Positions 18,164 to 63,817 of a DNA stretch of 64,000 nucleotides are shown in pieces (position 1 is the first letter of the stretch; each line of letters begins with the position of its first letter). Below the pieces are notes generated by a model. It was given only the letters and a program-made list of their open reading frames with translations, had not been told where the DNA came from and made no database searches. The stretch is from Eledone cirrhosa. Lineage: Eukaryota. The position numbers and the translations under genes are program-made. Location of the stretch: NCBI GenBank assembly GCA_964016885.1, contig OZ024763.1:11718001-11782000 (forward strand), read 5' to 3'.

Positions 18164-18505
18164 ATCATCATCATCATCATCATCATTTTACGTCCGCTTT
18201 TCCCTGCAAGGGTGGGATGGGAACTGATTCTGGCTTGATTTCTACAGCTGGATGCCCTTCCTAACACCAACCTCATTTACAGTGAGTGCTGGGTAATTTT
18301 TTTTCTGTGGCACCTCCACGACCACTTTGCAGTGGAATGATAGGGACCCCAGTCCCTATCATCTCATTTCTACAGCTGAGTAAACTGGAGCAATGTGAAA
18401 TAAAGCGTCTTGCTCAAGGAAACAACACATCAGCCAGTCTGAGAATTGAACTCACAACCTTTCGATTGCAAGGCCAATGCTCTAACCACTAAGCCATGTG
18501 CCTCC
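18164..18505 (-). mobile_element. Full-length CORE-type SINE family B
   Basis: tRNA-like head GGAGGCACATGGCTTAGTGGTTAG...GAGTTCAATTC, CORE, (ATG)n tail. Confidence 0.9.
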
Positions 18506-22587: not shown

Positions 22588-22855
22588 TCATCATCATCAT
22601 CATCATCACCGTTTTACGTCCGTTCTTCCACGCTAGCATGGGTTAGACGGGTTGTCCTGTTGTGGGCAGTGTCTGGTCGGCTGACCATGCCTTGCTCATA
22701 CAGGAACTGATCTGGCTTGATTTCTACAGCTGGATGCCCTTCCTAACACCAACCTCATTTACAGTGAGTGCTGGGTGCTTTTTCGTGGCGCCTACACGTC
22801 CACTTTACAGTGTGGGCTGGGTGCTTTTTTGCCGTGGCACCTCCACGACCACCTT
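22588..22855 (-). mobile_element. SINE family B 3' portion
   Basis: Reverse complement of 10990-11253. Confidence 0.85.
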
Positions 22856-22891
22856 GCGGTGGGGGGGGGGGGGGCATATTGTTTATATGCT

Positions 22892-23818
22892 TCAGCATGT
22901 ACCCATGGGAGGTCGGGTACCCTGTATTACTGCGTGACGCCAGAAGTCACGGTCGTGTGTCATTGACTTTGAGAGGTGTAGTTGGGTAAGGTCGGCTTTT
23001 ATCACCTCATCCCAAGTCATCTTGGGTCTCCCCACTCCGCGGTTTCCATCAACTTCTAGTGCTCTGCACCTTTTTATGCAGCTGTCATCCTTCATACGCA
23101 TCACATGTCCATACCAGCGTAACCGCCTCTCCTGCACGCAGCATTTGATTCCTCTTATGCTCAGTCTCTCTCTCAATTCATTTATGCTTTGTCGTTCACG
23201 TATATTACTGTTACACATCCATCGGAGCATGCAGGCTTCGTTTCTCTCTAATCTACGTAAGTCTTCCACCTTCAGCGCCCAGGTCTCACTACCATGCAAC
23301 ATCGCTGTTCGGATACACGCATCATACAGTCTGCCTTTCATTCTGAGGGAGAAGCCTTTTGCAGCTAGCAGTGGTAGTAGTTCCCTAAACTTCTTCCATC
23401 CCGTTCTTACCCTAGTTATTGTACTTTCTGAGCACCCACCTCCGTTGCTAATTCGGTCACCTAGGTAGCAGAAGCTGTCTACTGTTTCTACAGGGCCCTC
23501 CCAGAGATTGGTGGTACTTGTTTCCTGTGGCTGTTTGCTTGCTGTTTCAGCACAGCTGCTGCATGTGAATCCTACATTCTTAATTAAGCTTCCTGAGATC
23601 CCGCTACATCTCTTGTGTACCCATTGTTTGCATTTGGGGCAAAGAATGGAGTTCCTACCTACACCTTTCCTACATACTGAGCAAGGCCATTTCCCTGAGG
23701 GGATCTGGGTTCTGTTTTCTCGTCTACTTATAAGGACCTTAGTCTTTGTCATGTTGACTTTGAGGCCCTTTCTCTCTAGTCCCTGCTTCCAGGTTTGGAA
23801 TTTATTCTCTAGTTCTAT
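22892..23818 (-). mobile_element. 5'-truncated RTE-clade LINE: open RT C-terminus containing a PHD finger
   Basis: GLKVNMTKTKV, FCYLGD, MLHGSETW, RRLRWYGHVMR, GRPKMTW; C4HC3 insert CSVC..CPKC..H..C..CSSC. Confidence 0.93.
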
Positions 23819-23828
23819 ATATTCATTT

Positions 23829-23867
<39 letters not shown>

Positions 23868-23872
<5 letters not shown>

Positions 23873-24195
23873 AAATGAAAATCCGAAGGCAAGGTAAAAT
23901 TCCAATCATTTAATCACGACACATGTTTCAATAAGAGATAGATCGATTGTGAAGCCATGATCGATTATCACTGATCTCATCAGGTGAAAATGAATTGTCT
24001 TCAAATTCTTGATATGAGGGAGAAAAAAATAACGATGTTCTCTCACAGAATTCATTCCCTCATATTCCTTCATTTTCACCTGATGAGATCAGTGATAATC
24101 GAACATGGCTTCACAATCGATCTATCTCTTATTGAAACATGTGTCGTGATTAAATGATTGGAATTCTACCTTGCCTTCGGATTTTCATTTTGATA
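23868..24195. mobile_element. Inverted-repeat element with a hammerhead motif in each arm
   Basis: Arms 23868-23994 and 24069-24195 are near-perfect reverse complements; (TA)n on the left flank. Confidence 0.75.
24071..24156 (+). ncRNA. Minimal type I hammerhead ribozyme candidate
   Basis: tcac CTGATGA(24080) ... GAAAC atgt GTC(24145) gtga; helix I tcac/gtga extended by cattt/aaatg. Confidence 0.55.
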
Positions 24196-24345
24196 CTTAT
24201 ACTCCATTTTACATCATCTAGCTGTTCCCTTGAATGGAATTGGAGATACACAAAAGCGTGGAGAACTTAACATTGCTAACATAAAGTTATTGGACCTTTT
24301 TACACAACCAATAATGCACCTTACTATATATATATATATACACAC

Positions 24346-24405
<60 letters not shown>

Positions 24406-53120: not shown

Positions 53121-53686
53121 AAATGCTATTGAAATGCTGGGTAAATATTCTATAGCTGTTGATCGCGAATAGATGGCTGTCGTTTATTTATCTATTATTT
53201 CTTCATAGATGCCTTTTAATCTTATAGCCTGGTTTAATTGGTTTTTGTGTGGTTGATTATGCTGATTGGGAGAGGAAATGGTGGATATATTTTATCAAAT
53301 ATGGACATAATTTATAGTATATATATATATACACACACACATTATATTAATAAATGGAAACTATATTTATAAAACCTTAATTTTATTATATATATTTCAA
53401 GGCAAATTTTGGTGCGCTTTCAACAGATAAAATACAAAATTTGTTTTATAAATGTTGACATACTCGCAGAAGAACAACCTTGACGGTTGGAGGTTCGCTG
53501 GATATTATATATATATATATATATATAGATATAGATATATATATATATAAGCAAAAGGATATTTAGTTTGTTGGTAATTCAACAAATATATATATATTTA
53601 TAACAGATTCGAAGCACCAGACAGGTTTTCTGGAGTATAATATCAATGATATTAATAAATGGAAACAATATTTATAAAACCATATT

Positions 53687-53747
53687 TATTCTATTATATA
53701 TATTTCAAGGGTACCAAAACTTTGGTACGCTCTCATCAGATAAAATA
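53687..53747 (-). ncRNA. Minimal type I hammerhead ribozyme candidate (mirror copy)
   Basis: Minus strand: tattttat CTGATGA gagc gtaccaaa gt tttggtac cctt GAAA tatat ATA atagaata. Confidence 0.65.
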
Positions 53748-53873
53748 CAAAGTTTGTTTTATAAATATGACATATCCAGGAATGATACCTTAATGAGACC
53801 TGACTATCCAGGTAAAACTTGAACCGTTAAGGTCTCATCCCTGGATATGTCAATATTTATAAAACAAACTTTG

Positions 53874-53934
53874 TATTTTATCTGATGAGTGCGTACCAAA
53901 GTTTTGGTACCCTTGAAATATATATAATAGAATA
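53874..53934 (+). ncRNA. Minimal type I hammerhead ribozyme candidate
   Basis: Helix I TATTTTAT/ATAGAATA (8 bp, 1 GU), CTGATGA at 53882, 8-bp helix II core, GAAA at 53915, 2-bp helix III, ATA triplet ending at 53926. Confidence 0.65.
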
Positions 53935-54529
53935 AATATGGTTTTATAAATATAGTTTCCATTTATTAATATCACTTATATATATATCATCATCATCATC
54001 ATCATCGTTTAACGTCTATGTTCCACGCTTGCATGGGTTTGAATGAGGGGTACATGAGTCCAGACACTAATTGACACATAGCCCTTTGCTCCAGAAAATG
54101 TAAACATGGTGGCTGGGTAAGACTCTTTAGGAACTTACATGTCTACCGGGCACAGACAGAAAGACGTGCTTTTCTGCCTGCAGCATATCACAAAATCAAA
54201 TTTCATGTGAAGATACTGTTCTCATAACAACAACAAATGCATGAATTACATCTTGTTTTGCAGAACTGTTGAAATAATTATTATGAATAAACGATTTATG
54301 TAACATCAGCATCTTTCTTAATGTTATTCTTTTATATATATACACTTGCACCTCTCTAAGACAATGTCTCTAGACTGAGATCTTTGGCACTACGCAGTAA
54401 TACAGAAGACCCGCCTTGCCTATGTACAAAGCGAAACATAGTCAGTAGGCACCTCTTAACCAAATATACACCCCAATCCACTACCCTATCCTCCCACTAC
54501 CACCAACAGCACGAGATAATGAGATCGAG

Positions 54530-56574: not shown

Positions 56575-57462
56575 GCTGGAACAATCTGTCTTGTTTCAGA
56601 AATCTCTCTAAGAATGAAGAATCTGTGTTAGTATGCATGTGTGTATGTGTATCTCTGTGTTAGTATGTGTATCTCTGTGTTAGTATGCATGTGTGTATGT
56701 GTATCTGTGTGTTAGTATGCATGTGTACATGTGTATCTATGTGTTAGTATGCATGTGTGTGTGTGTATCTGTGTGTGTGTAAGAGAGCTGGAATAATCTG
56801 TCTTGTTTGAATAATCTTTTTTCTCAAGGGTCAGTAATATAGCGATATTGAGCTAGACTGTACATGTATGTGTGTGAATATGTATGTACATATGTATGTG
56901 TGTGTACATGTATGTGTAAACATGTATGTATGTGTGTACATGTATGTGTAAACATGTATGTATGTGTGTGTACATGTATGTGTAAACATGTATGTATGTG
57001 TGTGTACATGTATGTGTATGTGTAAACATGTATGTATGTGTGTGTACATGTATGTGTAAACATGTATGTATGTGTGTGTACATGTATGTGTAAACATATC
57101 TGTGTGTGTGTGTGTGAGATTGGTAGAGAGCAAAGATATCTATCAAAATAACTTTATTTCAACCATATAGCTTCCTGCTTGATTTAAATTATAAAGAAAT
57201 ACAACCAACTTTGACATTTTCATGGTCTACCTGCTGATGATTAAATCTTAGTTGATTAGCAAAGTAATAATTAATTTACAGATATCTGGAAATCTGGTAA
57301 GAAAATAAAGAAAGAAATAAACATAAAATAAATTATTAGTTTATTTTTTTAATTTTATTTTCATTTTTTTTTTTTTTTAGTTTAGTTCTTAGATTAATTA
57401 TGCTACTGTTGTAAAATATAATTAATTAGTGTTTGGTAGCAAAATGAGGGCGAATAAATAAT

Positions 57463-62094: not shown

Positions 62095-63510
62095 TTATTA
62101 TTATTTGCTCTATTGCCCTGTTGCTGGGTTCAGGCATTCAACCTAAGGCAATAGATTTCCTTGTAGAGAGAGCGAGCTTATCTGAGAATGTGTGTTGTTC
62201 CTAGTAACCAAGGTACAGCTCTGATGATTTGGGTATCATCATCATCATCATCATCATCATCGTTTAACGTCCATTTTCCACGCTAGCATGGGTCTAAACT
62301 ATAATAAAGTAAGGAGTGTGGGACTGCGTCCAGAATATAATTTTTTATCCTGTTTGTAAAATAAGTTGGATTACTTTGAATAAATAATGAATGAATATTA
62401 CATAATTTATCTACTAAATTTAGTTATTCTTGATTAAATATAAATAATTTTGTTGCTTATTTTAAGATTCACTTCTTTAAAATTTTCAAATGTCAACACT
62501 TCCGGTTAGCGATCGCTTAAATAAACATTCATATATTTCCGTCACTAATTTTCTCCTAATGCAGTTTATATATAATATCATCTTTTTTTAATGTATCATG
62601 GATTACGTTACTGATTACATAAGACAGTGTAACGACACAGTCTTTGCTCAATTTCTGTGTATATTATCAATTACGAATTTATTTGATCATATCTACATGT
62701 AAATATATATACTTGTGTATAATATCAATATACACACTACACATGCTAGCAGAAAAACCACCCAAAGTGTGGCTTTTCTGCTAGTTAATCCTAATGCTCC
62801 TACCACAGGGATAATGTTTGTGGTCATCCTCCACATGTAGTTGATCTCTAATCCAAGTCTTTGTATTTGACAGTTTCTCCATTGTTTTTACAGATATAAT
62901 CTTGCCAGCTGGTACAGCAATATCTATCAGGCTACATGTTCTATCTGTTTGTGATTTATGATGATATCTGGTGTATTGGCAGATATTTCTCGGTTATCAC
63001 AAGCATATTATCCAGAATGAATATATTGCCATTTTCCATGACTGTTTTTGGTTGATGTTCATACTGTTTGTAGGAGGTTTGGATATCATGAAAACAGTAG
63101 AGCATCCAGTGCACATATTTGGCAATGCAGTTATGTCTTTTTATATAATCAGTTTGTGCCAGCTCTTGACATCCAGAGATAACATGATCTACCGTTTCTT
63201 CATATTTGTAGCATATTCTGCATAGAGGGCTATTCCCATCTTTCACTATTCTGTGTCTATAGGCTTGAGTGTTTAGAAATTGGTCTTGTGCAGCTACTAA
63301 GATACCATCCATCTCTGTTTCAGACCAGCACTTCTGAGTTAAGCTAGTGGGCCACGCTGATCATTGTCAGAAAAGAGCTCTGGGAATCTACCATGTAGTG
63401 CTTTTGCTTTGGTTTAATTTCTCTGTTTGAAGTTTCTTTGCTGTGATCTTCACAATCTTAGCTAACTGTACATCACTCTGGTGTTGATCTTTCCTTCCCC
63501 CCAAAATTAC
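62095..63510 (-). mobile_element. Decayed R4/Dong-like RLE non-LTR retrotransposon 3' part, interrupted at ~62235-62785
   Basis: LHGRF, AAQDQ.L.T, CRIC..ETVDHVISGC (CCHC), RHN, PDII..IDIAVP, KYKDL, GALG, LLGTTHILR, (AAT)n tail. Confidence 0.85.
62293..62784 (+). mobile_element. Non-autonomous Helitron-like insertion
   Basis: 5' TCTAAACTATAATAAAG; 3' hairpin CTAGCAGAAAA..TTTTCTGCTAG ending CTAG|T. Confidence 0.55.
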
Positions 63511-63516
63511 TGGCAT

Positions 63517-63817
63517 GGAGGCACATGGCTTAGTGGTTAGAGCATTGGCCTTGCAATCGAAAGGTTGTGAGTTCAATTCTCAGACTGGGTGATGTGTTGT
63601 TTCCTTGAGCAAGACACTTTATTTCACATTGCTCCAGTTTACTCAGCTGTAGAAATGAGATGATAGGGACTGGGGTCCCTATCATTCCAATGCAAAAGTG
63701 GTCGTGGAGGTGCCACGGCAAAAGGGCATCCAGCTGTAGAAATCAAGCCAGAATCAGTTCCCGTCCCACCCTTGCAAGCAGGGAAAAGCGGACGTAAAAT
63801 GAAATGATGATGATGAT
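63517..63817 (+). mobile_element. CORE-type SINE family B with internal deletion
   Basis: Head, CORE and tail nearly identical to 52775-53120. Confidence 0.9.

Follow-up and report, generated by a model that had tools for sequence, protein, structure and literature searches.

Insertions of Penelope-like elements (PLEs) are described as carrying an adjacent inverted, 5'-truncated copy and a tail of 30-40 bp, often at one end only, with a bias towards (TA)n targets (PMC8557442), and head-to-head pLTRs, of which the inverted one is shorter, have also been reported (PMC3846280). Dual minimal hammerheads have been found 100-700 bp apart on opposite strands, and these motifs are dimer-dependent and weakly active in vitro (PMC4209133). 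Work on PLE protein has indicated that AT-rich DNA is nicked and that internal reverse-transcription starts account for the tail, that the PAc hammerhead cuts only with the protein of the element, and that hammerhead mutants left PAc insertion in vitro unaffected (PMC11167929). The choice of internal start sites by PLEs is described as incompletely worked out (PMC8557442, PMC11167929).

The architecture presented below is already in print for PLEs (PMC8557442, PMC3846280, PMC4209133), as are long inserts between the core halves, in two plant PLE motifs, and a G·U-closed stem II, in two Hydra-clade motifs (PMC8557442). In the literature covered, which was largely open-access and included passages of PMC13282606 and PMC7229834, we found neither the present family, nor an animal PLE whose 47-nt helix II is mostly paired, nor the end motif that is common to the two families compared here.

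The locus lies in a window of 64,000 nucleotides of Eledone cirrhosa (contig OZ024763.1, positions 11,718,001 to 11,782,000). Its head-to-head, 5'-truncated copies are interpreted, with a probability of roughly 0.8, as the stump of a single Penelope-like insertion, for whose long-stemmed hammerhead cleavage is predicted in the parent RNA alone, and there likely only as a dimer or with the assistance of a protein. The layout is likely no new system, but the ordinary footprint that a PLE leaves on inserting into a TA repeat.

Layout of the locus and extent of the family

The inverted arms, described in the initial annotation as near-perfect and some 125 bp long, are indeed present as 127-bp arms (23868-23994 and 24069-24195) with two mismatches (23960/24103 and 23897/24166) and a 74-nt spacer, and their outermost 2-4 nt are TA, which leaves the assignment of these letters to arm or tract ambiguous. 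The extent of 23868-24195 given there proved too small, as the family coverage takes in the spacer and continues to 24324. The features are:

23832..23869, no strand: (TA)19 tract, left end, the likely target
23868..24065, minus strand: longer 5'-truncated copy (spacer and left arm), which passes into (TA)n at the first 3' end of the family
23868..23994, minus strand: left arm, 127 bp, with the family-majority letter at both arm mismatches
23995..24065, minus strand: family sequence upstream of the hammerhead (spacer), with its own hairpin (-16.1 kcal/mol) and a poly-T whose length differs between copies
24066..24068, no strand: filler of 3 nt at the head-to-head junction; behind 24065, as well as before 24069, the family no longer agrees with the window
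24069..24324, plus strand: copy with the shorter 5' part (right arm and one-sided extension), starting one base outside helix I
24196..24324, plus strand: one-sided extension, 129 nt, tail-like; family sequence rather than unique flank, with depth in runs X1, X4, and X9
24325..24400, no strand: interrupted (TA)n tract, right end, the likely target

The family was followed with the query 23995-24325 (331 nt), at 80% likeness, in 4 of the 11 sequencing runs listed, where it matched 860 contigs out of the 17.1 million of X1, 1677 reads out of the 12.5 million of X9, and, in two other organisms, one contig in X4 and two in X6; the family is multi-copy. Contigs with 8-15 differences bridge the arm and the extension, and a second class of copies (10 contigs, 75 reads) stops at the equivalent of 24195 and then enters (TA)n. 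Given these contigs, these copies, and the family depth as far as 24325, the unit consists of two unequal, head-to-head, 5'-truncated copies between TA tracts, with the 129-nt extension on the right copy only. The spacer belongs to the left copy (24065→23868), as its upstream portion, since it passes into the arm start on the opposite strand (joint 23995→24069) in 10 X1 contigs, and since eight contigs run on beyond 24065 into further sequence. In one contig the inversion joint is another one (24162/24275), and no head-to-tail joint is found among the four joints listed for the 331-nt stretch, in which units longer than 331 nt would show none.

At the two arm mismatches, the letter of the left arm is present in 697/719 and 310/326 of the X9 reads. 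The polymorphic letters, among those listed, are all common to both arms, which fits a single template, if only weakly.

The X9 read pile-ups at 24052, 24069, 24162/24165, and 24238/24241 were considered as element ends and rejected as library artefacts, given that AATT is found at 24049, 24162, and 24238 in the window and at the 24069 join in the family, and that the loose ends are heterogeneous; X9 is also uninformative on starts at 24069, because of the restriction site there. The T>A changes at 24197/24198 were rejected as TA ends, being subfamily substitutions. As a separate observation, the right copy (24069) and one X6 contig from another organism both start one base outside helix I, with unrelated sequence upstream (n=2).

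The hammerhead motif of each arm

The motifs and the domain inserted between their core halves are:

24070..24157, plus strand: right type I hammerhead motif (helix I 24070-79/24146-57, core 24080-86 and 24134-37, helix III 24137-44)
23906..23993, minus strand: left type I hammerhead motif (core starting at 23983; by symmetry with 24145, the cut is predicted to fall between 23918 and 23917)
24087..24133, plus strand: helix II domain, 47 nt (stem closed by G·U and interrupted by two pyrimidine mismatches and a bulge; the apex, 24104-24115, is variable)

The right-arm core, 47-nt insert, and GTC triplet had all been correctly identified, and each arm contains a full type I motif. In the right arm, CTGATGA (24080-24086) is followed by the 47 nt, by GAAA (24134-24137), and by the GTC ending at 24145, with the cut predicted after C24145, and CUGANGA, GAAA, and NUH are all present in the correct order. 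Helix I is formed by 24076-79/24146-49, a 2-nt bulge, and 24070-75/24152-57 (4 + 6 bp, with 10/10 standard pairs), while helix III has 2 bp as a monomer and 8/8 pairs in the dimer register. The two motifs point outwards, on opposite strands.

The loose core pattern alone is weak, with five matches in the window where 2.6 were expected, and with 11/100 shuffles reaching five. The full descriptor, which was composed after the element had been seen, has exactly these two matches in the 64 kb, whereas only 1/300 dinucleotide shuffles contained any match, and 0/300 a match with a helix II of -8 kcal/mol or lower. This descriptor misses the hammerheads of a comparison element at 53.7 kb, in whose helix I there is a G·U. 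The fifth loose core match, at 57234-57292 (plus strand), has a long spacer and lies outside the full descriptor.

No hammerhead family of Rfam was matched at the gathering score, nor among the 16 matches with E up to 10, which is probably owed to the long insert, and an Rfam match is not defining for the class. The sub-threshold matches (miRNA, snoRNA) were rejected, given that they reflect the hairpin only.

Helix II and predicted folding

The base of helix II, which had been thought to pair poorly, can pair: G24087·U24133, A-U, and U-A adjoin the core and are followed by a C×U mismatch, and 14/17 register positions of the stem are paired in the right arm, with one more in the left. The end-closed helix II hairpin reaches -9.4 kcal/mol, a value equalled by 1/2000 shuffles. 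Folding of the right-arm motif, as proposed in the initial annotation, indicates that helix II can form beside the core, but that the catalytic form is not the minimum. In the isolated 90-mer, the monomer catalytic fold has -10.9/-13.3 kcal/mol, against an MFE of -15.4/-16.9 kcal/mol, and the predicted pairing probability is 0.14-0.22 for the helix II base and 0.04-0.05 for helix III, with z about 0.

The ACATGT palindrome noted in helix III, if taken as the dimer helix, is out of register with A15.1-U16.1, and the catalytic dimer register is instead the 8-nt stretch 24137-24144, with 8/8 pairs, two of which are G·U. This stretch scores -7.4, and the 6-nt palindrome -6.8. The double hammerhead has -37.4 kcal/mol, against -26.6 for two monomers, and the cofold MFE is lower, at -44.2. 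A separate hairpin of -16.1 kcal/mol occupies 23995-24065 (minus strand), directly upstream of the hammerhead on the family sense strand.

The description of the locus as carrying twin hammerheads holds in that the motif with the long helix II is present in both arms, but not in the sense of a working pair. As the hammerheads lie on opposite strands, read-through RNA of the locus is predicted to bury both motifs, with an arm-arm pairing probability of 0.999 and a helix I near zero, and the loss of helix I to this pairing would prevent the two motifs from acting as a pair at the locus. Given that any read-through RNA would form the 127-bp hairpin, the locus itself appears to be a relic, rather than a working twin ribozyme.

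Variation among the copies

The variant counts comprise 36 rows from 24084 on, four spacer rows having been left out of the best 40 of 42 rows, and a subfamily with an extra A behind 24154 was clipped and not counted. All counts derive from a single reduced-representation library and from a few related subfamilies, so that the reads are not independent copies and the p-values overstate independence.

Among the listed variants, no position reaches a minor frequency of at least 10% in the core (0/12), helix I (0/20), helix III (0/6), or the helix II stem (0/35). In the 13 single-stranded and A15.1-U16.1 positions of the core, N7 is the only variable one (284/633 reads, listed variants), and this restriction of the variation to N7 points to constraint at the RNA level. 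At the same threshold, among the listed variants and in non-independent reads, the structured hammerhead has 0/73 variable positions, compared with 18/168 downstream (Fisher p=0.002), and the helix II stem has 0/35, compared with 4/12 in the apex (Fisher p=0.003). The copy-based view of helix II, which had been suggested as a check, supports a stem that is conserved across copies, with the common changes in the apex.

When the minor frequency is lowered to 4%, two stem positions vary among the listed variants, of which 24100 keeps a G·U and 24088 breaks a pair (35/649 reads). The change 24103 A>T (697/719 reads) restores a pair and 24115 A>G (412/751 reads) adds one, and 4/5 of the listed substitutions in the paired register of helix II keep, restore, or add a pair. 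No two-sided compensatory change in helix II was seen among the listed read variants, and no substitution in helices I and III.

Coding frames

No RT or GIY-YIG ORF was linked to the family, given that the short-frame protein and Pfam searches found no homologue and a metagenome pattern scan returned 0 matches, and PLE membership therefore rests on the architecture. One frame is a weak candidate for the start of an ORF:

24154..24270, plus strand: open frame of 38 codons, the first 14 of which are within the arm

In this frame, 8/14 family variants are synonymous (P=0.015, or 0.063 for the best of three frames), and the frame is broken in the second subfamily. No homologue was found in the protein atlas (none), by sequence search (one candidate, none scored), or in Pfam. 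The frame may resemble the hydrophobic N-termini of PLEs.

Two other frames were rejected. The frame 24064→23909, considered as the C-terminus of an endonuclease, yielded no candidate and no Pfam match, and has 1-2-nt deletions at 24023 in 77/119 reads. The frame 24194-24325 had three phmmer matches, each of which was a total from 3-15 separate stretches in a long, repetitive protein.

Origin of the locus

The PLE traits seen here are the hammerhead in a repeated terminal region, the inverted 5'-truncated copy in a head-to-head position, and the (TA)n at both ends. The one-sided extension has 129 nt, compared with the usual PLE tail of 30-40 bp, and a target-site duplication is unreadable, because both ends lie in TA repeats. 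Following published PLE biology, a GIY-YIG endonuclease would nick the (TA)n, and reverse transcription would start at internal sites downstream of the hammerhead, with the ends falling 48-50 nt and 179-180 nt past the cut site. Reverse transcription would then halt early, and the inverted copy would be made in the same integration. If the parent RNA is a tandem, its 8-nt strand of helix III would pair with the second copy in the catalytic register.

The hammerhead may also be a non-cutting relic or a look-alike, with the long hairpin kept for some other reason, such as protein binding or priming, a reading that is compatible with a PLE origin and that we consider unlikely, although far from negligible. 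It would agree with a catalytic fold that is not the MFE, either as a monomer or as a dimer, with the poor cutting of minimal PLE hammerheads in vitro (PMC4209133), and with the hammerhead mutants that left PAc insertion in vitro unaffected (PMC11167929). Among the listed variants, however, 0/12 catalytic positions vary, whereas N7 does, and helices I and III have no substitution, while the PAc hammerhead does cut when given its protein (PMC11167929).

A second alternative is a non-autonomous, PLE-dependent element, i.e., a solo pLTR family or a dispersed monomer of a non-LTR retrozyme, which would have no ORF of its own, would be mobilised in trans, and would leave the same inverted footprint. 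The short-frame searches, which found no ORF, and the high copy representation fit this alternative, and retrozymes have been reported as derivatives of PLE pLTRs (bioRxiv 10.64898/2026.07.22.740005). It nevertheless appears distinctly improbable, as the copies are inverted rather than tandem, with no head-to-tail joint (0/4 listed for the 331-nt stretch, where longer units would not show), and as the weak helix III and the lack of an evident loop 1-loop 2 module are unlike the canonical retrozyme hammerheads (PMC7229834).

Finally, a foldback DNA element of the MITE type that has long terminal inverted repeats and a fixed centre, once captured a hammerhead, and inserts at TA would account for the near-perfect 127-bp arms, the TA at both arm ends, and the small size, but is highly improbable, given that the spacer elsewhere joins the arm on the opposite strand (10 contigs) or runs past 24065 (8 contigs), that the family extends 129 nt past one arm only, that one contig has the inversion joint 24162/24275, and that a core varying only at N7 points to RNA-level constraint. 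Among the 15 titles listed, of 287 in the literature, none concerned a hammerhead-bearing MITE.

The 53.7-kb element and the common end motif

The Penelope-like reading of the locus can be set beside a second foldback in the window:

53603..53981, no strand: comparison element, with 129-nt inverted arms that carry hammerhead cores; a tail of 44 nt, on one side only (53646→53603), leads into (TA)n
24190..24206, plus strand: 17-nt motif across the first 3' end, 16/17 identical to the tail start of the 53.7-kb element (53646-53631)

By inspection, helix II of the 53.7-kb element is G·U-closed. The two elements had been said to lack similarity outside the core, which is contradicted by the 16/17-nt motif at the arm end. 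The match has a BLAST E=0.038 and was reached in 1/5000 shuffles, and 7/5116 window tiles score as well, the element's own tiles included. The distance from the cut site to the arm end is 48-50 nt in the 24-kb element and 48 nt in the 53.7-kb element. The proposed recurrence of the architecture in independent families is thus upheld in that the layout is present in a second family, but the families are not "sequence-unrelated", since the 17-nt end motif and the spacing are common to them. The recurrence of the layout is expected, given that it has been published for PLEs (PMC8557442, PMC3846280, PMC4209133). When DNA of both families was aligned five ways, the hammerhead cores were not placed in register.

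Given that there is one pair of families and that the motif is AT-rich, the common motif and spacing are a lead. Two otherwise dissimilar PLE families of this genome might keep a common ruler, with a first reverse-transcription start some 48 nt past the cut marked by the 17-nt motif, and with the 47-nt helix II as the selected protein-docking arm of a protein-assisted ribozyme, a proposal that is speculative and, on balance, improbable. If it were true, PLEs would contain an overlooked class of hammerheads, those of long helix II, which standard descriptors miss, and the 17-nt motif would rank as the first cis signal of internal initiation that PLE families have in common.

The locus itself is ordinary retroelement debris. 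It does offer a natural test of cleavage by a hammerhead whose helix II is G·U-closed and 47 nt long, a form that Rfam misses and that falls outside the core spacer of 7-17 nt used in PMC8557442. The common end motif and spacing also make the choice of internal start sites by PLEs open to testing.

Two further observations were made around the 53.7-kb element. A third, decayed copy of its family, about 85% identical and with an altered hammerhead core, lies at 53341-53462 (minus strand), and a second inverted pair, of 26 nt, lies in the centre of the foldback (53768-53852).

The LINE junction and other features of the window

The left TA tract borders on a LINE:

22608..23822, minus strand: neighbouring 5'-truncated LINE, a separate insertion, with the open frame 22892-23869
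23823..23832, plus strand: 10 nt that repeat the end of the element, at the edge of the TA tract that faces the LINE; the 10-mer occurs three times in the window, all at this locus

The LINE is presumably an RTE, as labelled in the initial annotation. Its frame (22892-23869, minus strand) has 325 codons from stop to stop, with PHD-finger matches only in Pfam (E=8.9e-07), and the long open frame suggests a young insertion. The (TA)n tract noted at the 5' truncation point of the LINE was confirmed, as (TA)19 and the truncated LINE frame are both present, with the 10-nt copy of the element's end between them. The (TA)19 tract is flanked by the arms of a 10-nt palindrome (23823-23878). In the simplest reading, the 10-nt copy is possibly snap-back filler from the joining of the LINE 5' end; alternatively, priming may have occurred from both sides of the tract.

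Elsewhere in the window, a 134-codon fragment of another non-LTR element (62956-63360, minus strand) has a weak zf-RVT match, and we assume it to be Dong/R4-like. Near-identical, borderline tRNA matches at 18431-18503 (minus strand) and 63524-63587 (plus strand) are probably the heads of a tRNA-derived SINE.

Comparison with known systems

The non-LTR retrozymes (PMC7229834; bioRxiv 10.64898/2026.07.22.740005) resemble the present family in being non-coding repeats with a type I hammerhead and a low GC content, but are described as head-to-tail tandems, whereas an inverted pair is found here, with no tandem joint seen among the four joints listed. In PLE-X1_sMoe and PLE-X1_sTam, which are marked as deviating in PMC8557442, some 45-50 nt likewise separate the core halves. 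These elements are from plants, lack the endonuclease, and target 28S, and their insert is drawn mostly as a loop, whereas the insert here is mostly paired and conserved (PMC8557442).

The minimal, dimer-type PLE hammerheads (PMC4209133) share with this motif a weak helix III that is better paired as a dimer, a helix II larger than the canonical one, and opposite-strand pairs. Their helix II has 6-8 bp, compared with some 17 register positions and an apex here, and their consensus has a G10.1-C11.1 closing pair and an unpaired base between 9 and 10.1, where the present motif has neither, and a G·U instead (PMC4209133). A stem II whose base is weak or mismatched has been described before (PMC3088659).

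The PLE hammerheads of the Hydra clade are also of type I, near the 3' end, with (TA)n targeting and a short, self-complementary helix III, and nearly all the PLEs of this clade insert at (TA)n (PMC8557442). Two of the motifs listed (Penelope-13_HM and Penelope-17_HM) have a G·U-closed stem II, and one family has an attached inverted copy, but their stem II domains are short, in contrast with the 47 nt between the core halves here (PMC8557442). Compared by eye, the Hydra-1_oBim motif row in PMC8557442 had no sequence match, and Naiad_Ovul ("HHR_half_core") was rejected as the same family.

The EN+ PLE insertions (PMC8557442; Pen2a_Av, PMC3846280), as described in these sources, differ from the locus, which has no ORF between or beside the copies, an extension of 129 nt where theirs has 30-40, and no readable target-site duplication. 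They nevertheless have the same unequal head-to-head copies, the same extension at one end, the hammerhead in the repeated end, and the (TA)n ends that are found here.
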